Positions 4,423-37,596 of a stretch of DNA of 64,000 nt are shown here, piece by piece (within the stretch, counting starts at the first letter, position 1; each line of letters starts with the position of its first letter). This DNA comes from Candidatus Shapirobacteria bacterium (lineage in GTDB: Bacteria; Patescibacteriota; Microgenomatia; UBA12405): the NCBI GenBank assembly GCA_030698565.1, contig JAUYJS010000008.1:161275-225274 (forward strand). Reading direction: 5' to 3'. The notes below the pieces were generated by a model. It ran no database searches. It saw only the letters and a program-made list of their open reading frames with translations, and was not told the origin of the DNA. The translations under genes were made by a program, and so were the position numbers.

Positions 4423-5073
4423 ATGTCCTTAATTTTAGATTTAATTTTTCCCAAAAAATGTTATGGTTGCCACCAAGAAGGTCAATATTTTTGTTCAAAT
4501 TGTCTTGATAAATTAAATAATATTCCTATTAAGCCACTTGTCGGCAGTAAACTGGAGAGTTGTTTGAGTCTTTTTAAATATAAATCAATTATCAAGTCAG
4601 CTCTGTTAGATTTAAAATACGGCTTTGTCTCCGATCTTGCCGATGAATTAGCCAATATTTGTGTTAACCGTATTAAAAAGGATTATCCTAGTTTACTAAA
4701 ATATTGGTTGGACAATAATTTCATTCTTATTCCTATTCCACTTCATCAGCACCGATATAATTGGCGAGGCTTTAATCAAGCCCAAATCTTAGGTGAAAAT
4801 ATTGCCGCAAAACTAGGCTTAAAATATTCAGATCAATTTTTTTATCGAACCTTAAATACATCAGCTCAGGCAAAATTAAAAGATAAAACCAATCGATTAT
4901 CCAATGTGGCCAATGCTTTTGTTTTAAATCCAGATAATATAGAAAATTTACCTAAAAATATTATTCTTTTTGATGATGTTACCACCACTCAAGCAACTTT
5001 AAATTCAGCCGTTACCGCGTTTAATTCCTCGCATGAAAACCACCATTATTGGGGTCTGACTGTGGCTGGCTAA
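4423..5073 (+). CDS. comFC: ComF family protein (phosphoribosyltransferase-like competence protein)
   Basis: N-terminal CxxC...CxxC zinc finger (CYGCHQEGQYFCSNC); C-terminal PRTase motif IILFDDVTTTQATL. Confidence 0.7.
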   Translation: MSLILDLIFPKKCYGCHQEGQYFCSNCLDKLNNIPIKPLVGSKLESCLSLFKYKSIIKSALLDLKYGFVSDLADELANICVNRIKKDYPSLLKYWLDNNFILIPIPLHQHRYNWRGFNQAQILGENIAAKLGLKYSDQFFYRTLNTSAQAKLKDKTNRLSNVANAFVLNPDNIENLPKNIILFDDVTTTQATLNSAVTAFNSSHENHHYWGLTVAG

Positions 5074-5734
5074 GATCGCTAATAAGTCTTTCTTTTTTAA
5101 TTTCTTCAGCAGTTTTTAATAGTTCCGGCTCATTTTTAAAGATATCAGTATCTTCTCCAATTTGAACACCTTCAATCGGAGTCAATGAACTTAGGTAAAA
5201 ATTTTCTACAAATAAGCCATGATTTGACAATGAATCTCTTAGTTCCTGTTTAATTTCATCCTCAATTAAACTCCTGTCTGTCGATAGAGCTTTTACTAAG
5301 GTGTGACAAGTTAATACCTTTCTAATTCGGCTTCGAGTTACCGGTCTAACAACTTTTGATACAAAATTTTCTCCAATATTTTGCCATATTTCCGGTAGTC
5401 TTTCTGTATCAAGTTTAATTAAAGCTGTGGCTTCGACTGTAACAAATTTATTGTCAGCCGTAACCGCATTAATAATTTCATCACTCATCGCTTCTTTGTT
5501 ATCTTTAAGGACGACATCCTTAGCAATAGTATATTCAATTAACTGAGCATTAAACAGTTTTACACGATGAATAATCGGAATCTTAAAATGCATTCCTGGG
5601 TACCACACATTTTTCAAAACTCCCTGAAACACACTATAGATACAGCCAACATGACCCGGAGGCACAGTGACGATAAAACCGCCAACAATTTCGTCAACTA
5701 AAAGCGATACTAATAAATTATCTATTGATGCCAT
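5021..5734 (-). CDS. SPFH/band-7 (prohibitin/HflC-like) domain protein
   Basis: 237 aa, N-terminal hydrophobic segment followed by a typical SPFH-like core; family-level call only. Confidence 0.55.
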   Translation of the reverse strand: MASIDNLLVSLLVDEIVGGFIVTVPPGHVGCIYSVFQGVLKNVWYPGMHFKIPIIHRVKLFNAQLIEYTIAKDVVLKDNKEAMSDEIINAVTADNKFVTVEATALIKLDTERLPEIWQNIGENFVSKVVRPVTRSRIRKVLTCHTLVKALSTDRSLIEDEIKQELRDSLSNHGLFVENFYLSSLTPIEGVQIGEDTDIFKNEPELLKTAEEIKKERLISDLSQPQSDPNNGGFHARN

Positions 5735-10895: not shown

Positions 10896-10972
10896 ATATT
10901 GTCTGTCATTGCGATCCCGCAACAGCGGGAGAAGCAATCTCATTTGATTTAACCGCTTTAATCCATTTTCTC

Positions 10973-11000
10973 GTAGAGACGCGCTGCAGCGCGTCTCTAC
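10973..11000. terminator. 28-bp perfect GC-rich palindrome GTAGAGACGCGCTGCAGCGCGTCTCTAC between convergent genes (candidate bidirectional terminator / repeat family copy 1)
   Basis: Perfect inverted repeat in an AT-rich intergenic gap between the VanW (+) and tsaD (-) stops; identical copy at 19344..19371. Confidence 0.55.
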
Positions 11001-11073
11001 AACCTGTTGTAATTTTTAATATAATCACACTCATACAATACGCCCCTACACAGACAAAAATATGTAAACAAAT

Positions 11074-12213
11074 TTATATTTCCGCTCTAGGCATTCTATC
11101 TAAATTCTCAATATCTTCCACAAACTCCAGTCTCAACGCTTTGTAGTATCCAACCACACCAATCATCGCCGCATTATCAGTATTCAATTCTTTTTTAAAC
11201 GGCATATAAATTGGTAAACTAAAATCTTTGGCCAATTTTCTTAACTTCTTTCTCAAATCTTTATTTGCCAAAACTCCGCCACTAGCTAATAGAGTTTTTG
11301 GTTTGAATTCTTTTATTGCCAATTTATATTTAATTAAAAGCGAGTCAAACACCGCTTCTTGAAAACTTGCCGCTAAATCAGCCAAATTAGCACTTATCTT
11401 TTCTTTTGGCCAATCTTTTATTTGGTAATAAAACGATGTTTTTAATCCAGAAAAAGAGTAATCAAAAGTCTTTTGTGTCGATAAAGGGCGGGGGAGTTTC
11501 ATCCAATCAATATCACCTTTAAGAGCCAATCTTTCAATTATTGGTCCACCCGGGTATCCTAATCCTAGCATTTTAGATGCTTTGTCCAAAGCTTCACCCG
11601 CCGCGTCGTCCAATGTCTCCCCGATCACAGTATATTTAGGGTTAAAGTCTCCCTTGTCAAACCCACGGTCCTCTTTAGAGGAGGGAGATTTAGAGGGATT
11701 TTTCATTAAAATTAATTTTGTATGTCCACCCGATACTGTTAAAACTAAAGCTGGAAACTCTATTTTTCTGTCTGGTTTATTTTGACTATTTTTAGCAAAA
11801 TTAGACAAAATATGTCCCTCAACGTGATTGACCGCAACTATTTTTTTATTATATTTTTGAGCCAATTCTTTGGCTCGATTGACACCAACACCTAAGGCAA
11901 TTGCCAATCCCGGTCCGATTGTCACCGCAATCACATCAATTTCTTTCATTCCATTTTCAATTATCATGGTTAATTTCTCCCTTTTATCAAAGGGAGATGT
12001 CCGAAGGACAGAGGGATTTGCCCTTTTCAAGGCTGTTGCAATCACCGCATCAATTCTTTCAGCGTGAGCCCTTTTAGCAATATCAGGAACAACCCCGCCC
12101 CATTTAGCATGTAAGTCTGTTTGAGAGGAAATTACATTTGAAAGAATCTTGTCATTTTCCAATACCGCCGCACAAGTATCATCACAACTAGTATCTATTG
12201 CCAATATTTTCAT
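11074..12213 (-). CDS. tsaD: tRNA N6-adenosine threonylcarbamoyltransferase TsaD (Kae1/Gcp family), carrying two in-frame palindromic element insertions
   Basis: MKILAIDTSCDDTCAAVLE start, metal-binding AVNHVEGHIL; 379 aa is about 40 aa longer than typical because of insertions at 11646..11702 and 11987..12036. Confidence 0.8.
   Translation of the reverse strand: MKILAIDTSCDDTCAAVLENDKILSNVISSQTDLHAKWGGVVPDIAKRAHAERIDAVIATALKRANPSVLRTSPFDKREKLTMIIENGMKEIDVIAVTIGPGLAIALGVGVNRAKELAQKYNKKIVAVNHVEGHILSNFAKNSQNKPDRKIEFPALVLTVSGGHTKLILMKNPSKSPSSKEDRGFDKGDFNPKYTVIGETLDDAAGEALDKASKMLGLGYPGGPIIERLALKGDIDWMKLPRPLSTQKTFDYSFSGLKTSFYYQIKDWPKEKISANLADLAASFQEAVFDSLLIKYKLAIKEFKPKTLLASGGVLANKDLRKKLRKLAKDFSLPIYMPFKKELNTDNAAMIGVVGYYKALRLEFVEDIENLDRMPRAEI
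11646..11702. repeat. short palindromic element, copy 1 (variant), in-frame in tsaD
   Basis: GTCTCCCTTGTCAAACCCACGGTCCTCTTTAGAGGAGGGAGATTTAGAGGGATTT; encodes KNPSKSPSSKEDRGFDKGDF in TsaD. Confidence 0.5.
11987..12036. repeat. short palindromic element, copy 2, in-frame in tsaD
   Basis: TCTCCCTTTTATCAAAGGGAGA-TGTCCGAAGGACA-GAGGGATTT; encodes ...RTSPFDKREK in TsaD; partial tandem CCCTTTTCAAGG follows. Confidence 0.6.
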
Positions 12214-12233
12214 CGTTAAGTTTTATTTAAATA

Positions 12234-12791
12234 ATGTATTATAAATTTATGGATAGTAATTCTTTTTTATCTAAGCAAAATAAGATATTTTTAACTTCAG
12301 CAATAATTCTTGCAATTTTATCACTAATTGGTGGTGTTTGGCTTTTCCGTTCACTACAACAACCTCAAGTTTCAACTGCTGTTATTGAAGAACAACCAAT
12401 AATCACATCTATACCGACTCCAACTCCAACTCCAACATCTCTAATTGATTTCAATAGCATTGATGATAATTTCTCCGTTTCTTATAGCCCTGTCCGGAAA
12501 CTTTATCAAGATACTGAATCATCGGGTAATCGTTATACTTTTTACCTTTCTTCGGGTAACTTTGCTATCCATGCTGGCACGGACTGGTCCTGGTCATATC
12601 CCAATCGCACTTATACCACTGATTTTTTAATTAATAATCAGCCAACTTTCCGTTACGACATAAATACTCAAACCATTGTTGATGTTCAGTATAACGGCAA
12701 AAATTATACTATCCAATGTGTCCACAACGGCTCATCCGCTCTCAAATCCGAATGTGAACAATTCCTCAAGAGCTTTAAATTTCGTATTTAA
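12234..12791 (+). CDS. hypothetical secreted/membrane-anchored protein with (PT)n linker
   Basis: 185 aa; N-terminal TM; PTPTPTPTS linker. Confidence 0.4.
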   Translation: MYYKFMDSNSFLSKQNKIFLTSAIILAILSLIGGVWLFRSLQQPQVSTAVIEEQPIITSIPTPTPTPTSLIDFNSIDDNFSVSYSPVRKLYQDTESSGNRYTFYLSSGNFAIHAGTDWSWSYPNRTYTTDFLINNQPTFRYDINTQTIVDVQYNGKNYTIQCVHNGSSALKSECEQFLKSFKFRI

Positions 12792-13911
12792 TCTCTCTGG
12801 TATTCTCGTCAATATATGCAAAATTAATCGGAAAGTAATGACTAATATTTTTCAGTTTTTTTAAATTTTCCTCGCCCATATTTTCCGACCACTCAACACA
12901 AGCAACGGTATTTGGTTCAAATAAATTTAAAAAATCAATTTCCTCAAATTCAAATGCATCCTTAATCCGGTAAAGATCAAAATGCAGAAATTTTTCTAGC
13001 CAGTTTCCCCCTTTCGTCAAAGGGGGATTAAGGGGGATTTCATATTCATTATAAATCACAAAAGTAGGGGAAGTAATTTTATCTTTAATTCCCAATATTT
13101 TACCGACTTGTCGGCTAAATACCGTTTTACCGCATCCCAAATCTCCGCTCAATCCAAAAATAATTGGCTTTTGTAGAGACGCATTGTATGCGTCTCTTAT
13201 ATTGTCATCCTGAACTTGTTTCAGGATCCTTTTCACCAAAAACTCTGCAACCTTTTCCGTTTCTTTTTCTGATTTGGAAATTAAAGTTTTAGCATTTCCG
13301 GAAATCAAATCACCTCGTCTCAAAATTTTTAATTCAGATTCTGTCGTATCAATAACCGTCGAAGGTAAATTATGAGGCAACTTTCCGGCATCGACCACCA
13401 AATCAATTATATTTTTTTTATATTCCGACAATGAATTTAAAAGACTTTGAATTGAGTAATTAGGGCTATTACCAGATATGTTTGCCGAGGTAGCCGTAAT
13501 CGGTTTTTTTAAAATTTTTATCAATTCATTTATATATTTATTATCAGGAATTCTCACTCCCAAAGTCCTATTTTCCGCCTCAATTCCCGACACTACTTTA
13601 TGTTTGCCTTTGCTCACAATAGTAAAAGGTCCGGGGAGTAAACTTTTATAAATTTCTTTAGCTTCGTCACTTAGTTCCACAAAATCAGTTGCCATTTTTT
13701 GATCCAAAACCGCAATCGAAATTGCTTTTCCTGTCGGTCGATTCTTAAACTCCAACAGCTTTTTAACTGCCGCCTCATTCATAGGATCAACAGCAGCAAT
13801 ATATACCGTATCCGATGGAAAAATTACTAATCCACCATTTTCGATAACCTTAGCTGTTTCCTTGATTATTTTCTCAAAACCAGAACCTAGTTTTATCCTC
13901 AATATTTTCAT
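12775..13911 (-). CDS. fusion protein: N-terminal Sua5/YrdC (TsaC, threonylcarbamoyl-AMP synthase) and C-terminal TsaE (YjeE P-loop) with palindromic insertions in linker and TsaE domain
   Basis: N-terminal VIFPSDTVYIAAVDP...KAISIAVLD (YrdC/Sua5); C-terminal GDLGCGKTVFSRQVGK...SPTFVIYNEYE (TsaE Walker A); the linker NIRDAYNASLQ is encoded by a palindrome-family copy. Confidence 0.7.
   Translation of the reverse strand: MKILRIKLGSGFEKIIKETAKVIENGGLVIFPSDTVYIAAVDPMNEAAVKKLLEFKNRPTGKAISIAVLDQKMATDFVELSDEAKEIYKSLLPGPFTIVSKGKHKVVSGIEAENRTLGVRIPDNKYINELIKILKKPITATSANISGNSPNYSIQSLLNSLSEYKKNIIDLVVDAGKLPHNLPSTVIDTTESELKILRRGDLISGNAKTLISKSEKETEKVAEFLVKRILKQVQDDNIRDAYNASLQKPIIFGLSGDLGCGKTVFSRQVGKILGIKDKITSPTFVIYNEYEIPLNPPLTKGGNWLEKFLHFDLYRIKDAFEFEEIDFLNLFEPNTVACVEWSENMGEENLKKLKNISHYFPINFAYIDENTREIKYEI
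13006..13041. repeat. short palindromic element, copy 3, in-frame in tsaC-tsaE fusion
   Basis: TCCCCCTTTCGTCAAAGGGGGATTAAGGGGGATTTC; encodes EIPLNPPLTKGGN. Confidence 0.55.
13175..13199. repeat. variant copy of the GTAGAGACGC...GCGTCTC palindrome inside the TsaC-TsaE interdomain linker
   Basis: GTAGAGACGCATTGTATGCGTCTCT keeps the GAGACGC/GCGTCTC stem; translated in-frame as IRDAYNAS. Confidence 0.5.
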
Positions 13912-13920
13912 TATTATTAT

Positions 13921-13965
13921 TATTATTTATCTCCCTTTTTCAAAGGGAGAAGCGGCGTTAGCCGA
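13921..13965. repeat. short palindromic element, copy 4, forms C-terminal tail and stop of the HD-domain gene
   Basis: TCTCCCTTTTTCAAAGGGAGA-AGCGGCGTTAGCCGAGAGGGATTTTT; reverse strand encodes ...SLSANAASPFEKGR*; near-identical to copy 5 in valS. Confidence 0.65.
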
Positions 13966-14595
13966 GAGGGATTTTTTTAACCACTCATTAATTTCTTCAT
14001 GCCAAATTTTATATTTGATTTTTAATTCCGTCACATCAGGCACTCCAAATTTTTTCTTAAATCTTTCAAGTATGATTCCATAACTACTATTTATATTATT
14101 TAACTCGTTTTTTGTTTCTTCAAAACTATTAAATCCCGGATGGCCTTTGGAATGAAAATTATCAACATAAGCAATTATTTCTTCCTCTAAACTAATCGGA
14201 ATATAATCATGTTTTTCTAATGGCAAATTCTCCTTTTCTATTTGCTCCTTATCTATACCCACCCCTGTATGACTTATGGCAAATCTTGCCACCTTTTCAG
14301 CGAATCCAAATTTTTTTAAAAAATCATAACCTAATTGTCCGTGAGTAATATATTTTACTTTTAATTTATAACTCTCATCAAAACATTTATAGTAACCCAA
14401 ATCATGAACCAAAGCTCCTAAACTTAACAATTCTTTATCTATTTTTATTTCGTATTTCTTTTCCAAATCAGTAGCGATATTCAAAGCAATTTCCTCCACA
14501 ATCAAACTATGGTTCCAACAAATTTCTAAAATTTTTTCTTTATATTTTCCGCTAGCTAAATTTTTGTGAAGTTGATATATTTTTTCTCTTTTCAT
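13927..14595 (-). CDS. HD-domain phosphohydrolase
   Basis: 222 aa; HD motif LGALVHDLGY; C-terminal 14 aa derive from palindromic element copy 4. Confidence 0.6.
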   Translation of the reverse strand: MKREKIYQLHKNLASGKYKEKILEICWNHSLIVEEIALNIATDLEKKYEIKIDKELLSLGALVHDLGYYKCFDESYKLKVKYITHGQLGYDFLKKFGFAEKVARFAISHTGVGIDKEQIEKENLPLEKHDYIPISLEEEIIAYVDNFHSKGHPGFNSFEETKNELNNINSSYGIILERFKKKFGVPDVTELKIKYKIWHEEINEWLKKSLSANAASPFEKGR

Positions 14596-14654
14596 AAAAA
14601 GAATTATAACTTATAGTCGAAATTTTAGCTTTATTTTCATGCTAAAATAATCGC

Positions 14655-17012
14655 ATGGATAAAGCGTATACCCCAAAAGACGAGGAGAAAATTTACAAGT
14701 CATGGGTAGATGCGGGTATATTCACTCCCAAAGTCCCCAAAGATCCGATTAAAGCTAGGGCAAAAAAAGAACCATTTACTATTATTTTGCCACCACCGAA
14801 TGCCAACAATCCGCTTCACGCCGGCCATGCTCTTTTCATCGTTGAAGATATTATGGTGCGATTTCATCGCATGCTTGGCGACCCCACTCTTTGGTTGCCA
14901 GGCACTGATCATGCCGGTATTGAAACCCAATTTGTTTTTGAAAAACAATTGCAAAAAGAAGGCAAGTCACGTTTTGATTTTGACCGCGACACATTATTTA
15001 AAATGATTTTTGATTACGTAACCAAGAATCGCGATGTTGCTAAAAATCAAATGAAACGATTAGGCTTTTCACTTGATTGGACTCGGGAAAAATTTACTTT
15101 GGACGAAGATCACATTAAACGTATTTACGCTGTTTTTCGGCGAATGGTTGACGAAGATTTGGTTTATCGTGATGAAAAAATCGTTAATTACTGTACTTTT
15201 TGTGGTACTGCCTTTTCCAATTTGGAAGTTATCCACAAAACCGTCGATTCTCATCTTTGGTATTTGAAATATCCAGTAGTAGGCGAAAAAGACAGATTTG
15301 TAACAGTAGCGACTACCCGACCGGAAACCATGCTTGGTGATACAGCCGTGGCTGTTAATCCTAAAGATCCAAAGTATCAGGATTTAAAAAATAAAAAATT
15401 ATTATTACCTTTGGCCGACCGGGAAATTCCTATTATTTTTGATGATTCAATTGATATGGAATTTGGCACAGGTGCTGTCAAAGTTACCCCGTCCCATTCA
15501 GCCGAAGACTACGATTTGGCCAAAAAGCATGATTTGCCTTTTATACGCATTTTTGATTACAACGGAAAGTCAAACGAACAAGTTCCTCAAAAATATCAAA
15601 ATTTGTATCCAAACCAAGTTCGACAATCGGTTGTGGATGACATGCAATCAATAGAATTGTTGGAAAAAACAGAAGATTATTCTCATGAAGTTGGCCATTG
15701 TTATCGCTGTGGGCGTCCAATTGAACCAATGACCGCACCTCAGTGGTTTGTCAAAATTAAACCTCTGTCTGACGAGGCTTCTAAAGCCGTCCAAAAAGAT
15801 GAAATTGTTTTTGTCCCAAAAAGATTCAAAAAAAGTTTTCTGACTTGGATGAAAGACATCAAAGATTGGCCTATTTCTAGACAGATAGTTTGGGGTCACC
15901 GAATTCCAGTCTGGTATGATTTAGCCCAAAATCTTCAAGCAAAAATTACTTTTATAAACAAAAAAGGCGAAGTAATTACTAACATCTGGTCTAAGTTGTC
16001 GTCAAATATTGAGACTGGTTTTTATTCATTTGAAGAAATTAAACAAGGTTTGCAGGTTTTATTGGTGCCAATCAATAAAAATGACCAAGGCGAAGTTGCC
16101 GGTGTTTATTATTCTGAAACCGAAGCGAATCAACATGGAAAATATATTCTCCAGGAAACCGATACTTTTGACACCTGGTTTTCTTCTGGCCAATGGCCTT
16201 ATTCAACTTTGGGTTGGGAACCGGATAGCAATCATTCCCCGGATTTTCTTTATTTTTACCCCACATCAGTTTTAGACACCATGTGGGATATCCTCTTCTT
16301 TTGGGTAGCCCGTATGGTTATTTTTGGTCTGTATGTAACCAAAGAAGTTCCATTTAAAGTTGCCCACATGCATTCGCGGGTAACAGACTCCAAGGGTCAA
16401 AAAATGAGTAAATCCAAAGGCAATGTCATTGATCCAGTAACAATTGTCGATCAACATGGTGCCGATGCTCTTCGCATGGCTTTAGTTTTTGGTATTGCCC
16501 CGGGTTCTGATGTAGCCATTTCCGATGACAAAATCCGAGCTCAAAGAAATTTTGTCAACAAAATTTGGAATGCCTCCCGTTTTATCGACATGCTCATCGA
16601 CCGCCTAAAAGAAAAAAATCCAGCTATTGATATTAGTCTCCCCTTTATCAAGGGGAGAGACGGCGAAGCCGAGAGGGGTTTAGTCGATCAAGAAATTCTC
16701 ACCCAACTCAACAAAATCATTCAATCAACTACCAAAAACATAAATAAATACCATTTTGGCCAGGCTTCTGAAGATCTTTATCATTTCTTTTGGAATCAAT
16801 TTTGCGACATTTATATTGAAAAAGCCAAGGACAGAGGGGAAGATGTTGTTCCAGTATTACTAACAGTTTTATTAAACAGCCTAAAATTATTACATCCATT
16901 TATGCCTTTTGTTACCGAAAATATCTTTCAATATTTCAAACAGAAATATCCAAATTTTTCTTCCGAAGAATTTTTAGCTATTTCTTCCTGGCCAAAGCCT
17001 TATGAAGTTTAA
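14655..17012 (+). CDS. valS: valyl-tRNA synthetase (compact, no C-terminal coiled coil), with in-frame palindromic insertion
   Basis: PPPNANNPLHAGHA (HIGH region), LWLPGTDHAGIETQ (ValRS-specific), KMSKSKGNVIDP; strong collinearity with E. coli ValRS N-terminus. Confidence 0.85.
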   Translation: MDKAYTPKDEEKIYKSWVDAGIFTPKVPKDPIKARAKKEPFTIILPPPNANNPLHAGHALFIVEDIMVRFHRMLGDPTLWLPGTDHAGIETQFVFEKQLQKEGKSRFDFDRDTLFKMIFDYVTKNRDVAKNQMKRLGFSLDWTREKFTLDEDHIKRIYAVFRRMVDEDLVYRDEKIVNYCTFCGTAFSNLEVIHKTVDSHLWYLKYPVVGEKDRFVTVATTRPETMLGDTAVAVNPKDPKYQDLKNKKLLLPLADREIPIIFDDSIDMEFGTGAVKVTPSHSAEDYDLAKKHDLPFIRIFDYNGKSNEQVPQKYQNLYPNQVRQSVVDDMQSIELLEKTEDYSHEVGHCYRCGRPIEPMTAPQWFVKIKPLSDEASKAVQKDEIVFVPKRFKKSFLTWMKDIKDWPISRQIVWGHRIPVWYDLAQNLQAKITFINKKGEVITNIWSKLSSNIETGFYSFEEIKQGLQVLLVPINKNDQGEVAGVYYSETEANQHGKYILQETDTFDTWFSSGQWPYSTLGWEPDSNHSPDFLYFYPTSVLDTMWDILFFWVARMVIFGLYVTKEVPFKVAHMHSRVTDSKGQKMSKSKGNVIDPVTIVDQHGADALRMALVFGIAPGSDVAISDDKIRAQRNFVNKIWNASRFIDMLIDRLKEKNPAIDISLPFIKGRDGEAERGLVDQEILTQLNKIIQSTTKNINKYHFGQASEDLYHFFWNQFCDIYIEKAKDRGEDVVPVLLTVLLNSLKLLHPFMPFVTENIFQYFKQKYPNFSSEEFLAISSWPKPYEV
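16638..16682. repeat. short palindromic element, copy 5, in-frame in valS
   Basis: TCTCCCCTTTATCAAGGGGAGA-GACGGCGAAGCCGAGAGGGGTTT; encodes SLPFIKGRDGEAERGL within the ValRS anticodon-binding region. Confidence 0.65.
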
Positions 17013-17493
17013 AATACTAAAAACAACTGTTTTGTTATTTTTAGTATTACTTTTAACTGTTAATATCTATTTTTCTATATTCAAACACGATCCAATTTTA
17101 GAAGCCAAAAAGATGATGATTTCTTTATCGGCTGGCGACAGGTATTCTGGTCGGCTTAAACTTTGGTATTTATTGGCCAACAAAGGTGATTGGGGTAACG
17201 CAGCCAAGTTAGAATCAAATCTAGATTCGGTTGATATTGCAAATTACAAATCACTCTACCAGCCGGAAGAATTAAAAAAGAGAATGGATACATTAATTCA
17301 AAAACCTAATAAATCAGTTGAAGATTGGATGGAATTGGCAAAGCTTCAATTAAAATTTAATCAAACAGAGGCTGCAGACCTTTCAATCTCTCAAGCCCAC
17401 AAACTCGATCCAATCAGGGAAGATATTGAAAAACTTTATTTATCTTCTTTTTCAGCTGCTTCTTTTGCGGCTAGTTCTTCTTCGGTTTTTTGA
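17002..17493 (+). CDS. hypothetical membrane-anchored protein
   Basis: 163 aa; N-terminal TM VLLFLVLLLTVNIYF; no recognised domain. Confidence 0.4.
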   Translation: MKFKILKTTVLLFLVLLLTVNIYFSIFKHDPILEAKKMMISLSAGDRYSGRLKLWYLLANKGDWGNAAKLESNLDSVDIANYKSLYQPEELKKRMDTLIQKPNKSVEDWMELAKLQLKFNQTEAADLSISQAHKLDPIREDIEKLYLSSFSAASFAASSSSVF

Positions 17494-18107
17494 GCTGTTG
17501 CTGGAACTTCACCAGGAGTCACTTCTTCCGCAACTATAGGTTCTTCTTCAACTCTAGGTTCTTCAACTTTAATGATTACCTGAGTTGCATCATTTAAAAT
17601 TTCTACTTTAGTTCGGTCAACATCAAGATCAGCAACTGTTATTTGAGATTCCAAATTTTCCAATTTAGAAATATCAACAATAATACTTTCTGGTAAATCA
17701 GTTGGCAAAGCTTCAACTTCAACTTCATTAGCAGCTTCAACCAAAACATTTCCTTCTTTAACAGCAAATGATTCACCAATAAATTCGATCGGGATCATCG
17801 CAGTAATCTTTTCTTTTAAGTTAACCTTAAAACAATCAACGTGCAAAAGATTCCCATAAATAGCATGGAATTGTGGATTTCTAAATAAAATAGGAATTTT
17901 TTTATCATCGAGCATCAATTCAATCAAACCAGATTCTCCTACCTCATCGAAAACTGATTCTAATTCTTTGGCTGTAAATTGGACAGAAAGAGGACTAAAA
18001 TCTCGGCCGTAAACTGTGGCTGGTAAAAATCCCTCTCTTCTTAATTTTTTAACTTTTCGGCCTAAAACTGTTCTAATGGTTCCATTTAATTGAAGTTTGT
18101 CTTTCAT
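17436..18107 (-). CDS. rplY: 50S ribosomal protein L25 / general stress protein Ctc, with acidic C-terminal extension
   Basis: N-terminal LNGTIRTVLGRKVKKLRREGFLPATVYG; two-domain L25/Ctc architecture. Confidence 0.75.
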   Translation of the reverse strand: MKDKLQLNGTIRTVLGRKVKKLRREGFLPATVYGRDFSPLSVQFTAKELESVFDEVGESGLIELMLDDKKIPILFRNPQFHAIYGNLLHVDCFKVNLKEKITAMIPIEFIGESFAVKEGNVLVEAANEVEVEALPTDLPESIIVDISKLENLESQITVADLDVDRTKVEILNDATQVIIKVEEPRVEEEPIVAEEVTPGEVPATAQKTEEELAAKEAAEKEDK

Positions 18108-18254
18108 TTTTTTTGGTTTTGCCTAATGCCCCTTCTCCTACAAATTCTGCTTTGCAGGATACCTGACTTCGGCTCAAATAAACTAAGGGGTATTATAACA
18201 TAACGGAAGAAGCAATCTAGCAATTTTATTGTTACAATTTATTAAATATTATAT

Positions 18255-18300
18255 TCCCCCTTTTCAAGGGGGAAATCCCGATTCATCGGGAAAGGGGTTT
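18255..18300. repeat. short palindromic element, copy 6, in trpS 5' leader
   Basis: TCCCCCTTTTCAAGGGGGA-AATCCCGATTCATCGGGAA-AGGGGTTT immediately upstream of the trpS ATG (18307); the ORF track reads through it only for lack of a stop. Confidence 0.6.
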
Positions 18301-18306
18301 AAAATT

Positions 18307-19320
18307 ATGAATCAAAAAAATATATCAAAACCTAGAATTTTAACCGGTGATCGTCCTACCGGTCCTTTACATGTCGGCCATTATATAGGTACTCTGGCCA
18401 ACAGGGTCAAACTTCAAGACGAATACGATTGTTTTATTATTATGGCTGATCTCCATACTCTAACAACCAATCCTAGTAAGGAAAAAACCATTGGTATCAA
18501 CGATCGTGTCAGGGGTTTAGTCTTAGACTACTTATCCGTCGGTCTTGATCCGGAAAAATGCACTTTTTATCAACAAAGTCGGGTTCCGGAAGTGGCCTAT
18601 TTATCCTTAATATTTTCAATGCTCGTTACTGTTCCTCGTGCCCAAAGAATTCCCACTCTCAAAGACGTCTTGCGCGATTTAAAAATTGAAAAGCCATCCC
18701 TGGGTCTGTTGACCTATCCAGTTTTACAAGCCGCCGATATTCTAATGGTTAAAGCCAATTTAGTACCAGTCGGTAAAGATCAAGAAAGTCATGTGGAAAT
18801 AACCCGGGAAATTGCTACAGATTTCAATCGAATGTATGGGGAAATTTTTCCAGTCCCCAAAGCCTTAATTGGTGATAACGGTACTCTCATAGGTACCGAT
18901 GGTCAAGCCAAGATGAGCAAATCTATTGGAAATTGTATTTATTTAAGCGACTCCGAAGATGTGGTCAATCAAAAAGTCAAAACTATGTATACCGACCCCA
19001 CCCGTATCCGACCAACCGACCCGGGTCATGTCGAAGGTAATCCAGTTTTTATTTATCATGACGCCTTCAATGATAACAAAGAAGAAGTTGCCGATTTAAA
19101 GGCAAGATATATAAATGGACAAGTAGGGGATGTGGAAGTAAAAACTAAATTAGCCCTAGCCATGAATCGTTTTCTGGCACCAATTAGAGACCGCCGCGCC
19201 AAATATGAGGGCAAAACCGATCTCATTAATCAAATCATCGACGATGGTTCCCAAAAAACCCGTCTCGAAGCCCAAAAAACATTAAGTGAAGTCTTGTCAG
19301 CAATGGGATTACAGAAATAA
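18307..19320 (+). CDS. trpS: tryptophanyl-tRNA synthetase
   Basis: ILTGDRPTGPLHVGHYIGTL (HIGH region), KMSKS; start placed at internal ATG 18307 (MNQKNISKPRILTG) rather than ORF-track 18229. Confidence 0.85.
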   Translation: MNQKNISKPRILTGDRPTGPLHVGHYIGTLANRVKLQDEYDCFIIMADLHTLTTNPSKEKTIGINDRVRGLVLDYLSVGLDPEKCTFYQQSRVPEVAYLSLIFSMLVTVPRAQRIPTLKDVLRDLKIEKPSLGLLTYPVLQAADILMVKANLVPVGKDQESHVEITREIATDFNRMYGEIFPVPKALIGDNGTLIGTDGQAKMSKSIGNCIYLSDSEDVVNQKVKTMYTDPTRIRPTDPGHVEGNPVFIYHDAFNDNKEEVADLKARYINGQVGDVEVKTKLALAMNRFLAPIRDRRAKYEGKTDLINQIIDDGSQKTRLEAQKTLSEVLSAMGLQK

Positions 19321-19343
19321 AGGGATAATAAACATTCGTTTTT

Positions 19344-19371
19344 GTAGAGACGCGCTGCAGCGCGTCTCTAC
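19344..19371. terminator. second copy of 28-bp palindrome GTAGAGACGCGCTGCAGCGCGTCTCTAC (candidate trpS terminator)
   Basis: Identical to 10973..11000, with shared flanks TGTAGAG...CTACAAC; 24 bp downstream of the trpS stop. Confidence 0.55.
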
Positions 19372-19456
19372 AACTTAAATATTTATACAACAAATCAAAT
19401 TTTCTTTTTTTTGTCCATGGGTTAGAATGAATTAATAAATTATAATTTTTATATAT

Positions 19457-21038: not shown

Positions 21039-21108
21039 GCGGGGCCAGGAGTTGAACCTGGCCTGTGAGATTATGAGCCTCACGTGCAGCCGTACACTAC
21101 CCCGCATG
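21039..21108 (-). tRNA. tRNA with anticodon CAU (Met, fMet or lysidine-Ile2; not resolved)
   Basis: Minus strand TGCGGGG-TA-GTGT-ACGGCT-GCAC-G-TGAGG-CTCATAA-TCTCA-CAGG-CCAGG-TTCAACT-CCTGG-CCCCGCA-A; perfect 7-bp acceptor with U1-A72; short D-loop. Confidence 0.5.
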
Positions 21109-21539: not shown

Positions 21540-22409
21540 ATGAGTGAACTTTCACTTGAAAATGCTTTAAATTTGTTCGTGGGCGCGCTTTCCAAAAAAG
21601 GAAAGTCTACAAATACTATTGTAGCTTACAAAGGCGACATCAACCAATTAGTTGCTTTTTTAAAAAACAAACTTAATATTGTTACTATTGATGCTATTGA
21701 ATCTAAAGATATTGATGCTTTTAAAACCGATTTAATGGACAATAATTATACTTCTAAGTCTGTCTCCCGAAAACTAAATTCCTTTAAAAATTTTTTTTCA
21801 TTTTTAAAAAATGAAGGCGTTATCACCAAAGATCCCTCTTCTGAGATTCAGCATCCAAAATACGAAAACGATTTGCCCAAGATCTTAAAACCAATTGAAT
21901 ATCGTTCTTTGCGCGATGCCTGTCGCAATGACCTTCGAGCCACAGCCATTGTTGAATTAATGCTTCAAGCCGGTCTAAGAATCAAGGAAATTGAAAACTT
22001 AAAGATGGAAAATGTCAAAGATAACGAAATTTATATCGAAAGCTACGAAAGCCACCCAGCCAGAACTGTACCTCTAAATAATTCTGCCAAAAATGCTTTA
22101 AAAAGATATTTAGATGAAAGCCGATACGAAACTAAATCTAAAAGTGTTTTTATTACCAAAACCGGTCGACATTTATTGGCTAGAAATATTAGAAGCCTTT
22201 TAAATCGCTATTTTGATAAAGCCGATATTAAGGATGTTAAAGTCAATGACTTAAGAAATACCTTCATCGTCTATCAACTCAAATCTGGGGTACCTATTGA
22301 TATCGTCTCTCAAGTCGTTGGTCACAAAAGAATTTCTACTACTGAAAAATATCTAGAACTAATCGATAGTCGGGAAGAAAGTAAAGGCATCAAACTCAAA
22401 GAACTTTAA
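21540..22409 (+). CDS. tyrosine site-specific recombinase, XerC/XerD-like
   Basis: 289 aa; N-terminal SAM-like domain; catalytic R (AGLRIKEI), H-x-x-R (GHKRIST) and Y (TEKYL). Confidence 0.7.
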   Translation: MSELSLENALNLFVGALSKKGKSTNTIVAYKGDINQLVAFLKNKLNIVTIDAIESKDIDAFKTDLMDNNYTSKSVSRKLNSFKNFFSFLKNEGVITKDPSSEIQHPKYENDLPKILKPIEYRSLRDACRNDLRATAIVELMLQAGLRIKEIENLKMENVKDNEIYIESYESHPARTVPLNNSAKNALKRYLDESRYETKSKSVFITKTGRHLLARNIRSLLNRYFDKADIKDVKVNDLRNTFIVYQLKSGVPIDIVSQVVGHKRISTTEKYLELIDSREESKGIKLKEL

Positions 22410-30288: not shown

Positions 30289-31374
30289 ATGGTTGTCACT
30301 CTAGACTTTTCAAAGATTAAAAAAACATTAGTAGCTCAGGCTAAAAAGCTTCACTATCTCACAAATGAAGAAATTATAGGCCAAGTTCCAGAGCCAGAAA
30401 AATACATTCCTCAGCTCGATGATCTCTTCGATTACCTGTTTGAACAAGGGATTGATGTTTTCGACAAGGTAGAATCCAAAGAAATTATAGAAATAGAAAA
30501 GGAAAAATTAAGCTCTTCCGATTTTCTAAATCTTTTAACTCAAAAAGCCAATGTTGATTCGGTTAGGATGTATCTAAAAGAAATCGGTAAAATCGACCTT
30601 TTGAATTTTGACGAAGAAGTTAGATTAGCCAAAGCTATTGAAAAAGGTTCTGCAGATGCTCGGGAAAAATTAATTAATGCCAATTTAAGATTAGTTGTTT
30701 CTATCGCCAAAAAATATATCGGTCGCGGTTTAACTTTCCTCGATTTGGTTCAGGAAGGTAACCAGGGTTTAATGCGGGCAGTCGAAAAATTTGACTGGAA
30801 GCGCGGCTTTAAATTTTCTACCTATGCCACTTGGTGGATTCGCCAAGCTATTACCCGTGCCATTGCCGATCAGGCCAAGACTATTCGTATCCCCGTCCAT
30901 ATGGTCGAAACTATCAACAAAGTTTACAAGGCCACTCGGGCTCTCACTCAGCGCTTAGGCCACGAACCAGAAATCGAGCAAATTGCCGAAGAAGTCGGCA
31001 TCACTGTTGAAAAAGTCGAAGAAATTTATAGAATTTCCCAGGATACTACCTCGCTTTCTACTCCAGTAGGCGACGATGAGGATTCATTTTTGGGAGATTT
31101 TATTGAAGACACTACTCAGCCATCTCCCTATGAAGAAACTTCCAAAGAATTACTTCGTGAATCTATTGAAGAAGTTTTGGGTTCTTTAGACGAAAGGGAA
31201 ATGAAAGTTTTAAGTCTTCGTTTTGGTCTGATGGGTGAGACTCCAAAAACTCTAGAAGAAGTCGGCAAAATTTTCAACGTCACTCGCGAGCGTATTCGCC
31301 AAATCGAAGCCAAGGCTTTGCGAAAACTCCGCCATCCTAGTCGTAGAAAAAAACTCCAAGATTATTTGGAATAA
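30289..31374 (+). CDS. rpoD: RNA polymerase sigma-70 factor (primary sigma)
   Basis: Region 2 [37 protein letters not shown]...[13 protein letters not shown]; region 4 [27 protein letters not shown]. Confidence 0.85.
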
Positions 31375-31466
31375 AATAACTTTTCTGGAATCGGCCGAAA
31401 TACAAGACAGTATTAATATTACACAATATATTTTAATATTTGGTATTTTTGTGTACAATTCTAAAT

Positions 31467-34400
31467 ATGAATTGTATATATGACACGTTTACAAATCTCT
31501 ATTCATTATCAAAAACACTTAAATTTGAACTTATACCAGAACCAGCTACTCTTAAAATACTTAAAGAAAAACAAATAATTCAAAAAGATTTTGAGCTTAA
31601 TGAAAATTATCAAAAAGTAAAGCCAATTTTTAATCAGATTCATTCAGAATTTATAGAAGAAAGTTTAGGTTCAGCCGTTAACAGCCAAATTAATTGGAAT
31701 GAATATTTTGAGATTTATAAAATAGGAAAAAATGAAAAAGATAAAGCTAAATTAGATAGTCTTAGAAAAGAGAAAACATTAATTGAAAAAAAACTTCGAA
31801 GTGAAATAACTAAATTGTTTAATGTTACCTCCGAAAAATGGAAATCAAATCCCGAATATGTAGACGATAGAGGAAAATGCTTATTTAAAAAAAATGGGCC
31901 TGAAATTCTGGCAGAAAAAGGAATTTTAAAACTTTTATATATCAAATATCAAAACAAATCAGGATTGGAATTATTAAAAAGTTTTGATTCATTTTTTACA
32001 TATTTTTCTGGATTTAATCAAAATCGAGAAAACTATTATTCCAGTGATGAAAAATCAACAGCTATTAGTTATCGTATTGTTCATGAAAATTTACCTAAGT
32101 TTTGTGAAAATTTATTAGATTATCAAAATAAAATTAATCAAAACATTACTATTGATAATCTAGATATCTTCGATATTAATTATTTTAATGAATGTCTGTC
32201 CCAGAAAGGAATAAATAAATATAACCAAGCAATCGGCGGATTTCGAGATGAATCAGATATAGCTAGCTTTAAAGTCCAAGGTATTAATGAAAAAATAAAC
32301 TTATATTTTCAAAAAACAAAGCAAAAACTTCCCAAGCTCAAATTTTTATATAAACAAATTGGTGTAATCCAAGAAAAGAAAGAGTTGTTTTTTTTAATTG
32401 ACGGTCACGACCATACTTTAAAAAACACACTAGAATTGTGTTTAAAAGAAAGTACTCTATATAACCAAAGAATAAATGATCTCGTTTGTTCAATTTTGAG
32501 GGCCGAAAACTTAGATCAAATATACCTTTCTAAAGCTGCATTAAACACTATTCAAAGAAAGTACTTCAATAATTGGCAGGTTGTCGAGGATGAATTTATA
32601 AATCAAAAATTATTTACCAAAAAGAAAAATAAAGAGGAAATCAGACTAACTATTCCAGAATTTATATCAATCGATAAATTCAAATTTGTATTTAATAATT
32701 TATCTGAAATAGACGCAAAAGATATTTTCAAAGAAAAATATCAAAACTTATTCATATTAAAAAACAAGTTTGATATTTTTGTAAAAATTATCGAACAAGA
32801 ATTCTCTTGGAATTATTTAGAATTTAATCAATCATTAGAAAATAAAAAATTATTTAGTGATAGCGAATGGAACAGGGTTACTTGGGTATTAGCTAAAACT
32901 AATCTTGAAAAAATTATCAACAATTTAAGTGAAAAACCAGATACTGAACAAAAAAATATTATTAAAACATTTTTAGATTCTTCATTAGTATTGTTACAGA
33001 TGCTTAAGTACTTTAAGATTAAAGAATCAGGGGTAGGTATCGTAAATTGGGATGGTGATTTTTATAATGAGTTAGACAATATCACACAAAGTTATCCACT
33101 GTTTAAGTGGTATGATGCAGTTCGCAATTATTTAACAAGAAAACCGTTTTCTGAAGATAAAATAAAAGTTAATTTTGAAAAAGGCAATTTACTTGGTGGT
33201 TGGCCAGATAGTCCAGAAGGTAATACTCAATATGGAGGTTTCATTTTTAGAAAAAATAACAACTATTTCTTAGGCATATCGCAAGACGCGAGACTATTTG
33301 ATCTAACAAAAAATCCAAATTCTCACAATAATGATGGCTCGTTTGAAAAAATGGATTTAAAACAATTAGACGGAAAAACGATATATGGATCAATTTATGG
33401 TGGTAAATACCAAACAAAATATGCCAAAGATAAGGATAATATTTCAAACTATGAATTGATAAAAAGAGTTAAAGATATTCTAAAAGAAAAAAGCACGTAT
33501 TTTCCACAATTAAATCAAATTATTGATGGTGATTTTGACGACCCAAAAAAACTTGCTACAGAAATTTCTTCAAAAACTTTATATTCAATAGACTTTTTTA
33601 AAGTTAGTGAAAATTATATTAACGAAGTTACTAGTCGAACCAACAAACCTCTTTATTTATTTAAAATATCCAATAAGTATCTTAAAAATTCAAACCAAAA
33701 TAATAAAAATAACTTACACACTAAGTTTTTTTTAAAACTTTTTGAAAAACAAAACAACGAATCTCTATTTAAGCTGTGTGGTGGGGGAGAAATATTCTTT
33801 AGAAAAGCATCTGTTGATCAAAAAATAGATGAATCTAGAAAAACATCGATTAAAATAGTCAAAAACAAAAGATATACAGAAGATAAGTATTTTTTTCATG
33901 TACCAATTGCGCTAAATGCAACTAAGCCGGGTTATTATAAAGATTTTAATAAAAGAATTAATGAAGATTTGATAGGCAATAAAAATAATGTTCATATTAT
34001 CGGTATTGATCGAGGAGAAAAGCATTTAGCTTACTATTCAGTCATCAACCAAAAAGGAGAAATTGTTGAACAAGGTTCGTTAAATAAAGATTTATTAGGT
34101 AAAGATTACGGTGAAAAACTTGAATTTATTGCAAAAGAAAGAGAAAAAGCCAGAGAAAATTGGGATCAAATTAATAAAATAAAAGATTTGAAAGATGGTT
34201 ATATCTCACAAGTTACAAAGAGAATCTCTGACCTGGTAATAAAACATAATGGTATTGTAGTTTTTGAAGATCTAAACTCAGGATTTAAAAGAGGTCGTCA
34301 AAAAATAGAAAAATCAGTTTATCAAAAACTAGAACTTGCTCTAATTAAAAAACTTAATTATTTAGTTGATAAAAATAAGCACGACGGAGAAACATTATCA

Positions 34401-35180
34401 GTCACCAACGCTTTACAGCTTACACCCCCAACTGATAATTTTGGAGAAATAAAAGGGAAACAATGGGGAATCATTTTTTATACAACAGCAGCCTATACAT
34501 CAGTTACTGACCCTATTACTGGTTTTAGAAAAAATATATATCTTAAAAAATCAGCAAAGAATATCATGCGAGAAAATATTTTAAAGTTAGACAATATAAT
34601 TTTTGATCAAAATAATTTATGTTTCCGTTTTGATTATTCATTAAATAAGTTTCAAAAAGATACTAGTAATAAAAAATGGAGTTGCTATACCCATGTTGAT
34701 CGAATATGTAATGAATACGATAAAAAAATAAATAAATGGGTCCCAACCTCAATTTGCCTCACAGAAAAATTAAACGATCTTTTTAAATCAGAGAATATAG
34801 ATATTAATAAAAATATTATTGAACAAATAAAAAACAAAGAAAATCTAAACAATAAATTTTATGAAGACTTAACTTTCTACATTAATTTACTATTTCAACT
34901 TAGAAATTCCAATTCTTCAAAAGAGATTGATTTTATTTACTCTCCAATAGAACCCTTTTTTGACAGCAGAAAATATCAACAAGAAGGTCAAAATCTTGAT
35001 TTTACAGAGAAAGCCAAATTACCTGTTCATGGGGACTCAAACGGTGCTTACAATATTGCTCGCAAGGGCTTAATAATGTTTAAAAGAATTAAACTAACTC
35101 CAGATAAGCCTGATCTTTTTATTGGAAATGAATATTGGGATTGTGTAGCGCAGAATTGGGAGGAATTTATAAGATCATAA
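31467..35180 (+). CDS. cas12a: Cas12a (Cpf1), type V-A CRISPR effector (1237 aa from ATG 31467)
   Basis: N-terminal FTNLYSLSKTLKFELIP; RuvC-I IIGIDRGEKHLAY; RuvC-II IVVFEDLNSGFKRGR; RuvC-III HGDSNGAYNIARKG; matching Cas12a repeats downstream. Confidence 0.9.
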   Translation: MNCIYDTFTNLYSLSKTLKFELIPEPATLKILKEKQIIQKDFELNENYQKVKPIFNQIHSEFIEESLGSAVNSQINWNEYFEIYKIGKNEKDKAKLDSLRKEKTLIEKKLRSEITKLFNVTSEKWKSNPEYVDDRGKCLFKKNGPEILAEKGILKLLYIKYQNKSGLELLKSFDSFFTYFSGFNQNRENYYSSDEKSTAISYRIVHENLPKFCENLLDYQNKINQNITIDNLDIFDINYFNECLSQKGINKYNQAIGGFRDESDIASFKVQGINEKINLYFQKTKQKLPKLKFLYKQIGVIQEKKELFFLIDGHDHTLKNTLELCLKESTLYNQRINDLVCSILRAENLDQIYLSKAALNTIQRKYFNNWQVVEDEFINQKLFTKKKNKEEIRLTIPEFISIDKFKFVFNNLSEIDAKDIFKEKYQNLFILKNKFDIFVKIIEQEFSWNYLEFNQSLENKKLFSDSEWNRVTWVLAKTNLEKIINNLSEKPDTEQKNIIKTFLDSSLVLLQMLKYFKIKESGVGIVNWDGDFYNELDNITQSYPLFKWYDAVRNYLTRKPFSEDKIKVNFEKGNLLGGWPDSPEGNTQYGGFIFRKNNNYFLGISQDARLFDLTKNPNSHNNDGSFEKMDLKQLDGKTIYGSIYGGKYQTKYAKDKDNISNYELIKRVKDILKEKSTYFPQLNQIIDGDFDDPKKLATEISSKTLYSIDFFKVSENYINEVTSRTNKPLYLFKISNKYLKNSNQNNKNNLHTKFFLKLFEKQNNESLFKLCGGGEIFFRKASVDQKIDESRKTSIKIVKNKRYTEDKYFFHVPIALNATKPGYYKDFNKRINEDLIGNKNNVHIIGIDRGEKHLAYYSVINQKGEIVEQGSLNKDLLGKDYGEKLEFIAKEREKARENWDQINKIKDLKDGYISQVTKRISDLVIKHNGIVVFEDLNSGFKRGRQKIEKSVYQKLELALIKKLNYLVDKNKHDGETLSVTNALQLTPPTDNFGEIKGKQWGIIFYTTAAYTSVTDPITGFRKNIYLKKSAKNIMRENILKLDNIIFDQNNLCFRFDYSLNKFQKDTSNKKWSCYTHVDRICNEYDKKINKWVPTSICLTEKLNDLFKSENIDINKNIIEQIKNKENLNNKFYEDLTFYINLLFQLRNSNSSKEIDFIYSPIEPFFDSRKYQQEGQNLDFTEKAKLPVHGDSNGAYNIARKGLIMFKRIKLTPDKPDLFIGNEYWDCVAQNWEEFIRS

Positions 35181-36965: not shown

Positions 36966-37159
36966 AACTTTAAAAATACGACAAAATAGAAGTTATTGTG
37001 CGTAATTAAAACCTAAGTCTTTATTTTTCTTTAAAAATAGAGCAAATTATAAAATTAGACCATATATAAGGGTAATTTTATATCTATCATTATATGGATA
37101 AAGTCCTAAAAATAAAATTTTTAGTTGCATCTTTTTCCCATAAGATAGGTAAACCAGCT

Positions 37160-37570: not shown

Positions 37571-37596
37571 TAATATTCATTTTTTTCTATTTAATA

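Follow-up and report, generated by a model that had tools for sequence, protein, structure and literature searches.

What are the short palindromic sequences that lie in frame within conserved housekeeping genes of Candidatus Shapirobacteria (Microgenomates, candidate phyla radiation), and how did they come to be there? The stretch of DNA analyzed here, referred to as the window, comprises 64,000 nucleotides of an assembly with a GC content of 34% and carries six copies of one hairpin element, designated family A, within positions 11646–18300. An initial annotation had interpreted these copies as short selfish palindromes residing in frame in housekeeping genes as lineage-specific indels, and comparisons with a syntenic relative and between close strains support this core reading. 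Family A probably represents miniature, non-autonomous, hairpin-forming mobile repeats of the kind of repetitive extragenic palindromic sequences (REP) and miniature inverted-repeat transposable elements (MITE). The elements are multicopy, polymorphic in their insertions, found nested, recurrent at hot spots, located in loops and distributed across phyla.

Hairpin elements inside conserved genes

The six copies are 35–57 bases long and all lie on the plus strand (Table 1). The pattern TCCCYYTTN{1,5}CAARGGG has five matches, every one on this strand, against 0.01 expected by chance in the window, which bears out the claim that one hairpin element recurs here six times. The elements share a common plan, in which hairpin A (TCYCCCTTT, a loop and AAAGGGRGA) is followed by either a 4-nt spacer or a second hairpin, hairpin B, and then by the tail (G/A)AGGG(A/G)TTT. 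The stem of hairpin A is a perfect 9-bp stem in five of the six copies (TCTCCCTTT/AAAGGGAGA or C/G variants). The basic unit measures about 34 nt, and its tail repeats the G-rich arm of hairpin A (GAGGGATTT or GGGGGATTT); in low-GC genomes the place of the spacer is usually taken by hairpin B. Taken alone, the tail motif occurs in the window at chance level (8 occurrences versus 7.9 expected), and six of the eight are positioned directly 3' of a hairpin. When copies 2–6 are folded as single-stranded DNA, the expected single or double hairpins form, and the z-scores lie between -3.4 and -4.9.

The initial description of the second hairpin and the tail holds, except that copy 3 has no second hairpin. 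Copy 1 follows the same architecture in its one-hairpin form, with a 21-nt hairpin insertion, CCCACGGTCCTCTTTAGAGGA, nested in the loop. Pairwise identity between the copies of the window is 61–83%, and copies 4 and 5, first thought to be nearly identical, share only 83% of positions (38/46). Copy 4 had been placed at 13921..13965, about 9 nt away from its actual position. On average, 4.3 of the six reading frames of an element are free of stop codons, compared with 3.15 of six for random window segments, and both orientations indeed encode peptides of the (S/P/L)P(F/L)xKG type; SLPFIKGRDGEAERG is an example of an insert-bearing peptide.

Five copies are located in coding sequence, where they maintain the reading frame and encode the peptides originally quoted: two in TsaD, one in the TsaC–TsaE fusion, one at the C terminus of the HD hydrolase and one in ValRS. 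The sixth was correctly assigned to the trpS leader, and it sits 6 nt ahead of the start codon. Gene identities at the locus are confirmed by Pfam. In the AlphaFold2 model of TsaD, with a mean predicted local distance difference test (pLDDT) score of 87, copy 1 is predicted to lie in a beta-hairpin loop between two strands (pLDDT below 60) and copy 2 to lie between two helices (pLDDT 75–84). Both TsaD inserts thus appear between secondary-structure elements, with pLDDT values there ranging from below 50 up to 84. The insertion site in ValRS is a hypervariable linker before the anticodon-binding domain. No family A copy is present in the genomic island of the window, nor in the other 11 kb of core genes at 1–10.9 kb. 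The proposed restriction to the core genome is therefore right as to the island and too broad as to the rest, and the copies cluster locally rather than being simply spread over the core genome.

The insertions are evident from comparison with a syntenic relative, L002, represented by 22 kb of a 1.117-Mb JGI contig with the same gene order as the window. Its proteins are 46–77% identical to those of the window (67–77% for TsaD, TsaC–TsaE, ValRS and TrpRS, and 46% for the HD protein), and those with inserts in the window are shorter in L002 (Table 1). In the protein alignments each gap falls exactly at an element peptide. The orthologue comparison recommended with the initial annotation thus yielded clean indels at all five coding sites. 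No hairpin of family A, or of the companion families B and C described below, was found across the 22 kb of L002, and its trpS leader lacks the element.

Turnover is also seen at a much shorter distance. A close strain is represented by Logan contigs L244 (about 8.7–13.2 kb of the window) and L245 (13.2–19.4 kb) from sample SRR22388232, with 92–95% DNA identity. Copies 1 and 3 are identical in L244, while copy 2 is missing from it, leaving a 51-nt in-frame gap. Copy 4 is missing from L245, where the gap of 56 nt corresponds to (ATT)n filler plus the element. The HD protein of L245 ends with ...EWLKKINENF and a stop codon, and the HD gene overlaps there with the start of tsaC–tsaE; the C terminus and stop codon of the HD gene in the window are therefore supplied by copy 4, as had been suggested. 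A further 42-nt in-frame indel relative to the close strain, at 14204–14245 of the HD-domain gene, is not a hairpin element. In the ValRS linker L245 carries another variant at the same site (peptide KPPFSREVPPMKSERGGF), and in its trpS leader another variant occupies the same place, with GTTCAGCGAAGCTGAAC as hairpin B and a tail that again abuts the ATG. At both sites the variants differ in hairpin A, hairpin B and tail, and the flanks are about 95% identical. With two copies absent and two swapped in a strain of 92–95% identity, the turnover must be recent.

The same sites have been occupied repeatedly across Microgenomates. A strict hairpin-A peptide motif occurs in 15 of 120 ValRS and 22 of 120 TsaD orthologues, compared with none in shuffled sequences. 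The closest of these ValRS orthologues (73% identical) have no insert, and many Microgenomates ValRS carry element-type peptides at the linker of copy 5, for example KSPLSKGDLEGF, APLPQGGMSEGQGGL and SPFSRGNV. Among the TsaD orthologues both insertion sites are hypervariable; some contain the copy 2 variant NPSVLRTSPLEKGRS, and some carry tandem arrays of elements of up to about 60 amino acids. Similar peptides in distant orthologues had been named in advance as a sign of ancestral protein segments, and for TsaD and ValRS such peptides do exist. Closer relatives lack them, however, and the variants differ, which argues for recurrent occupation of permissive sites rather than ancestry.

Table 1. 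Hairpin elements and genes of the locus (window coordinates; genes assigned by Pfam)
Feature	Position	Strand	Location and structure	Encoded peptide, z-score or protein length
Family A, copy 1	11646–11701	+	Antisense inside tsaD; one-hairpin element TCTCCCTTGTCAAA...GGGAGA-TTTA-GAGGGATTT	KNPSKSPSSKEDRGFDKGDFNP, TsaD residues 172–192
Family A, copy 2	11976–12019	+	Antisense inside tsaD; two-hairpin, hairpin B GTCCGAAGGAC	NPSVLRTSPFDKREK, TsaD residues 66–80
Family A, copy 3	13006–13040	+	Antisense in TsaE half of tsaC–tsaE fusion; one-hairpin TCCCCCTTTCGTCAAAGGGGGATTAAGGGGGATTT	PLNPPLTKGGN
Family A, copy 4	13930–13974	+	Antisense, end of HD-domain gene, just upstream of tsaC–tsaE start; two-hairpin, hairpin B CGGCGTTAGCCG	...SLSANAASPFEKGR and stop (last 14 codons and stop of HD gene)
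Family A, copy 5	16637–16681	+	Sense in valS, linker between catalytic and anticodon-binding domains; two-hairpin, hairpin B CGGCGAAGCCG	SLPFIKGRDGEAERGL
Family A, copy 6	18254–18300	+	Sense, trpS leader; two-hairpin, hairpin B TCCCGATTCATCGGGA; tail AAGGGGTTT stops 6 nt short of ATG	
Family B	10973–11000		Palindrome GTAGAGACGCGCTGCAGCGCGTCTCTAC between convergent vanW-like gene and tsaD	z-score -6.0
Families B and C	13173–13227		In frame, TsaC–TsaE interdomain linker	RILKQVQDDNIRDAYNASLQ; z-score -9.7
Family B	19342–19373		Downstream of trpS; 30 nt identical to copy at 10973	
tsaD	11074–12213	minus	Hypothetical gene between tsaD and tsaC–tsaE	379 aa (L002, 354 aa)
tsaC(Sua5)–tsaE fusion	12775–13911	minus		378 aa (L002, 357 aa)
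HD-domain gene	13927–14595	minus		222 aa (L002, 209 aa)
valS	14655–17012	plus	Followed by TPR-like gene and ribosomal protein L25 gene	785 aa (L002, 765 aa)
trpS	ATG at 18307			

Distribution across phyla and relation to known repeats

A pattern derived from the copies of the window, with lengths of 24–60 nt allowed, matched at least 120 loci in species-representative genomes, for which 133 matches were listed. They come from Proteobacteria, Nitrospirota, Chloroflexota, Cyanobacteria, Bacteroidota, Omnitrophota, Parcubacteria and others, and 93 of the 133 are 32–34 nt long. Their 34-nt consensus core is TCCCCCTTTnnCAAAGGGGGATTGAGGGGGATTT, with 86–100% conservation among the matches listed at positions left free by the pattern; the sequence of copy 3 is close to this consensus. 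An outer AATCCCC arm is found in 10 of the 133. In the other phyla the elements are mostly intergenic, as the median open frame spanning a listed match is 297 nt, versus 1017 nt at random positions. Listed neighbors less than 120 nt apart in the higher-GC genomes form 36 inverted pairs versus 7 in the same orientation. Unannotated copies of the 34-nt core are also carried by plasmids of Acinetobacter and Pseudanabaena and by 62 viral contigs; a BLAST search of the core against cultured phage records gave nothing meaningful. Family A is thus not specific to the candidate phyla radiation, but is a cross-phylum family resembling REP elements and REPINs, their inverted pairs.

A second pattern, with about 46 bits of information, yielded at least 120 matches in metagenomes. 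Among those listed, the 34-nt one-hairpin form occurs on contigs of any GC content, the 40–41-nt form on contigs of about 56% GC, and the two-hairpin form of 42–55 nt almost only on contigs of 29–44% GC. Hairpin B comprises 71 distinct middle segments with 31 distinct stems, and three-base G-N-A loops dominate. Perfect stems of at least 4 bp are formed by 62% of the middle segments, versus 13% of shuffles; hairpin B is conserved as structure, not as sequence. The 44-mer of copy 2 recurs with 2 mismatches in another genome (contig L015), antisense inside an unrelated open reading frame (ORF) resembling a nucleotidyltransferase, a sign of dispersal across loci and genomes that supports the initial reading. 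Dense same-strand arrays were observed on the metagenome contigs L172 (8 copies in 8.7 kb) and L195 (5 copies in 1.9 kb), where two or three elements fill every spacer between co-directional genes in a manner resembling clustered REPs (bacterial interspersed mosaic elements, BIME).

Several known systems invite comparison. Rickettsia palindromic elements (RPE), reportedly described by Ogata and colleagues in 2002, form a single long imperfect palindrome of roughly 100–150 bp and are not known outside Rickettsia. Like these, family A consists of selfish palindromic repeats lying in frame in conserved genes of a compact genome, where they encode surface peptides and appear as indels relative to orthologues. 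Unlike them, it is 35–57 bp long, combines one hairpin with a 9-bp stem, in some copies a second small one, and a tail that does not pair, and occurs in many phyla. The RPE-like label given to it initially is therefore apt as to the in-frame indels and not as to size, and the resemblance is one of analogy, not of membership. RPE-1, RPE-4 and RPE-6 are cited in the study of Di Nocera et al. (2013; PMC3733652), in which intragenic REPs with GTAG or CGTC tags were found in several phyla, some of them in tRNA synthetase genes, as singles, dimers or clusters encoding 20–80 amino acids.

REPs are GC-rich palindromes of 20–40 nt in many copies per genome, mostly extragenic and normally species-specific. 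Family A resembles them and REPINs in its stem-loop, in being multicopy in this window and on many contigs, in varying between strains, in its inverted doublets (in higher-GC genomes) and in an occasional intragenic position. Its ends, T(C/T)CCCC and GGGRTTT, lack the GTAG or CGTC tag; copy 3 does contain CGTC, but within the loop, and it is family B (GTAGAGACGC...) that carries GTAG. Further differences from REPs are that no RAYT (REP-associated tyrosine transposase) lies nearby at the 120 loci listed, that the core is near-identical across phyla, and that most copies of the window (five of six) are inside genes. The REPIN arrangement is absent from the window, which contains six singlets on one strand. 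REPs, which as inverted pairs make up REPINs, have been proposed to be mobilized by RAYT transposases (PMC3733652; Bertels and Rainey, 2011; PMC3116915), and the latter paper mentions the small dispersed repeats (SDR) of Nostoc.

These SDRs, said to have been described by Elhai and colleagues in 2008, are reportedly intergenic or located within other repeats. They are mobile hairpins of tens of nucleotides that insert into one another, and cyanobacteria also carry family A; judged by that description rather than by sequence, they differ from family A, whose copies in the window mostly keep the reading frame of housekeeping genes. Mobile GC clusters of yeast mitochondria and double-hairpin elements of Allomyces mitochondria are likewise short GC-rich elements of one or two hairpins in AT-rich compact genomes, sometimes in frame. 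However, they are organellar and unrelated in sequence, and no cross-kingdom link is implied. Like the MITEs of Coxiella (PMC5896051) and other bacteria, family A appears non-autonomous and can be situated in frame in genes. MITEs, in contrast, are longer and have insertion-sequence-derived terminal inverted repeats and target-site duplications, none of which was seen for family A; in the window copies its tail has no inverted partner.

Four features appear new: the presence and abundance inside essential genes of the candidate phyla radiation, the three-part plan with a free inner hairpin, the near-identity of the core across phyla, and the replacement of variants at fixed sites between close strains. 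In the searchable literature, queries with sequence strings and keywords turned up neither these elements nor, for these bacteria, any account of REPs or MITEs, which is not proof that none exists. Genomes of the candidate phyla radiation are usually described as streamlined and repeat-poor.

Probable mobility of the elements and alternative explanations

If family A is mobile, its elements would appear, disappear and replace one another as DNA within short times, and would accumulate where they are tolerated, namely in surface loops of proteins, in linkers between domains, at the ends of genes and in short leaders. In a genome nearly devoid of intergenic space, the survivors would be copies that can be read as part of a gene, with a length divisible by three and a stop-free frame. 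Survival in protein loops may thus be due to the little intergenic space that compact genomes offer, and the in-frame, seemingly designed look of the copies would result from this survival filter together with the composition of the element. The encoded peptides would be passengers. The moving form may be a single-stranded DNA hairpin, which an enzyme acting in trans would transfer by cut-and-paste or by copying; an HUH/Y1 RAYT-like transposase and a host replication or repair function are candidates for this enzyme. The single-stranded hairpin is favored as the recognized form by the structure-only conservation of hairpin B, the G-N-A loops and the nested hairpins. Such loops make unusually stable DNA mini-hairpins, and IS200/IS605 and RAYT systems recognize single-stranded DNA hairpins. 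Replacement of whole variants at fixed sites suggests that resident copies may be overwritten by other variants via recombination or re-insertion at the same site.

Several observations weigh against this explanation. No recurrent neighboring gene or transposase emerged from all-against-all BLASTP of the ORFs at the 120 loci listed, and no transposase or RAYT was found among the 29 ORFs, a part of those in the window, that were scanned with Pfam. No target-site duplication is visible where copies 2 and 4 are present or at the corresponding empty sites. Neither polymorphic site is clean: about 7 additional nt accompany copy 2, and (ATT)n filler accompanies copy 4. Deletion in the relative is here indistinguishable from insertion. 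Replacement of variants at two exact sites in two close strains is not predicted by simple random transposition, and REP families do not usually share a near-identical 34-nt core between phyla. How many copies a genome holds, how they are oriented relative to replication and what fraction is intragenic are known from samples only.

A stronger version can be put forward only tentatively, and is rather doubtful. According to it, a single 34-nt family extends across most bacterial phyla, plasmids and viruses without a linked transposase, possesses exchangeable hairpin modules, and colonizes essential-gene hot spots in bacteria of the candidate phyla radiation, with variants swapped between strains that differ by 5–8%. 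If true, this would imply a mechanism of mobilization or cassette replacement so far not known, either host-independent or relying on a universal host enzyme that acts on DNA hairpins, and proteins that are otherwise frozen would be continuously supplied with new peptide loops.

The orientation of the copies bears on another explanation, by which they are cis-acting RNA modules under selection: a sense hairpin would protect or structure the mRNA, the tail would act as a Shine–Dalgarno-like sequence, and the intragenic copies would be by-products. Both copy 6 and its replacement in the close strain put the tail 6–9 nt before the ATG of trpS. On low-GC contigs at least 8–11 of about 53 two-hairpin copies, in sense orientation, have the tail 2–17 nt before the start of a long ORF, and the intergenic copies of L172 and L199 are all sense to the flanking genes. 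While 16 of the 53 two-hairpin copies lie inside genes, copies inside genes on these contigs are antisense in 19 cases versus sense in 4, which would be expected if internal motifs resembling ribosome-binding sites were harmful. This explanation is nevertheless unlikely. Around start codons the bias of 8 sense versus 3 antisense is not significant, and such a function cannot apply to four of the six window copies, which lie antisense within genes. L002 has, and is taken to express, the same genes without any copy. Of 45 long ORFs in the window, only 2 are preceded by GAGG and 2 by GGAG, which is close to the background frequency. Shine–Dalgarno motifs thus play little part in starting translation in this genome, and because they are almost absent, the case for the tail as a ribosome-binding site is weakened. 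A search of Rfam over 10.5–20 kb, with E-values up to 10, gave only chance-level matches.

Two further roles were considered and set aside. As intrinsic terminators the hairpins show no enrichment (6 terminator-like sites versus 6.9 expected), and a DNA-uptake-sequence role was dropped because the core is shared across phyla. The placement of all copies on one strand is suggestive of a replication-linked signature: the GC skew is negative throughout the element region, and distant neighbor pairs share the same orientation in 30 cases versus 15 opposite overall, and in 15 versus 5 on low-GC contigs. The data are accounted for about equally well by orientation relative to genes, as under a transcription-related filter; the window arrangement can equally be described as four antisense copies and one sense copy in coding sequence plus one sense copy in the leader.

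The companion hairpins of the window introduce the question of origin in place, by which palindrome-forming errors of replication (snap-back or template switching, off-center processing of hairpins) at fragile AT-rich sites would have generated the elements, a biased process accounting for their similarity. Family B consists of GTAG-tagged palindromes (GTAGAGACGC...GCGTCTCTAC), three of its four copies being perfect palindromes without a loop. The one in the TsaC–TsaE linker, GTAGAGACGCATTGTATGCGTCTCT at 13173–13197, has its inner stem changed symmetrically in the close strain; it is accompanied by a family C hairpin (ATCCTGAACTTGTTTCAGGAT, 13207–13227, encoding ILKQVQDD) that is missing from this strain of 92–95% identity. 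Such symmetrical change, the inner stems of family B and hairpin B, which are free in sequence yet perfectly self-complementary, the loopless palindromes, the different variants at identical sites in close strains, and filler such as (ATT)n at insertion junctions all agree with replication errors. A local process, however, cannot yield the same 34–44-nt sequence at unrelated loci and in different phyla, and no hairpin arm derives from flanking sequence. The intergenic composites argue in the same direction. The palindrome at 10973 is part of a 176-nt composite (10896–11073) found only in the window and absent from L244, and each strain has its own 176-nt intergenic composite, that of L245 at about 4934–5128. 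Both contain family B and TCCCGC...GCGGGA hairpin modules in AT-rich filler and are otherwise unrelated. Since only hairpin modules are shared, these appear to be movable rather than of local origin, and in-place formation is quite improbable as an account of the elements. The idea that the two 176-nt inserts form one larger mobile unit was rejected on the same ground.

That the inserted peptides are themselves selected protein features, for example interaction loops connected with an epibiotic lifestyle, and the palindromy of the DNA incidental, is very improbable. Inserts do recur at the same TsaD and ValRS loops in many Microgenomates, and the reading frame is kept. But the same DNA also occurs in intergenic regions and leaders, in both orientations and in different frames that give different peptides, the family is mostly non-coding in other phyla, the closest strains differ in the presence and variant of copies, and the loops are predicted with low confidence. 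Finally, short-read assemblies do break at palindromic repeats, and the independent Logan assembly L001 of the same sample ends inside family B palindromes, but artefacts of assembly or binning are hardly conceivable, because this assembly is 100% identical over 10978–19367, and the same elements occur in frame in contigs of a second sample and in hundreds of unrelated public contigs.

Neighboring features and wider meaning

The outer two family B copies bracket an 8.4-kb segment that contains every family A copy, and L001 terminates inside both. The copy at 19342 is present in L245, but immediately past 19374 the close strain is no longer syntenic with the window. Beyond this segment, the same 7-bp hairpin (GGCCAGG-AGTTGAA-CCTGGCC) lies upstream of the integrase gene in two genomes, at 21043–21063 in the window and 15921–15941 in L002; it possibly represents, at the edge of the island, an attachment site or else the arm of a tRNA.

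Within the genomic island, positions 21540–22409, 38299–39900 and 42422–50070 hold genes for a tyrosine integrase, for a large serine recombinase and for a protein bearing an FtsK-gamma domain, along with a type I restriction-modification system in which HsdR has a Schlafen/AlbA_2 domain at its C terminus. Just upstream of hsdM, at 43055–43342, there are four repeats of about 50 nt that resemble iterons. Over the window the GC skew changes from negative (1 to about 44 kb) to positive (44–64 kb). Because this switch lies close to those repeats, within the island, it may be a mark of the island instead of the chromosomal replication origin. A Cas12a (Cpf1) gene (31440–35180) is followed by further ORFs, possibly cas genes, up to 36687 and by a CRISPR array (37148–37591) with the Cas12a-type repeat AATTTCTACTTTTGTAGAT; a degenerate extra repeat is found at 40374. 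This locus (31440–37591) is flanked by a 123-nt repeat (87% identical) at 31253–31375 and 37595–37717.

For Shapirobacteria and their relatives, family A means that the essential TsaD, TsaC–TsaE and ValRS genes are riddled with hairpin DNA of fast turnover, the same loops being hot across Microgenomates. This explains many length differences and apparent "insertions" in the proteins of these bacteria, and the elements should be treated as mobile DNA in annotation, alignment and phylogeny. They break short-read assemblies and can be used as strain-level markers. The recurrent position before start codons and the antisense bias inside genes represent natural experiments, the latter on the sequences that ribosomes and proteins tolerate. 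The 34-nt core, tagless, shared across phyla and without a linked transposase, raises the testable question of how such tiny DNA moves.

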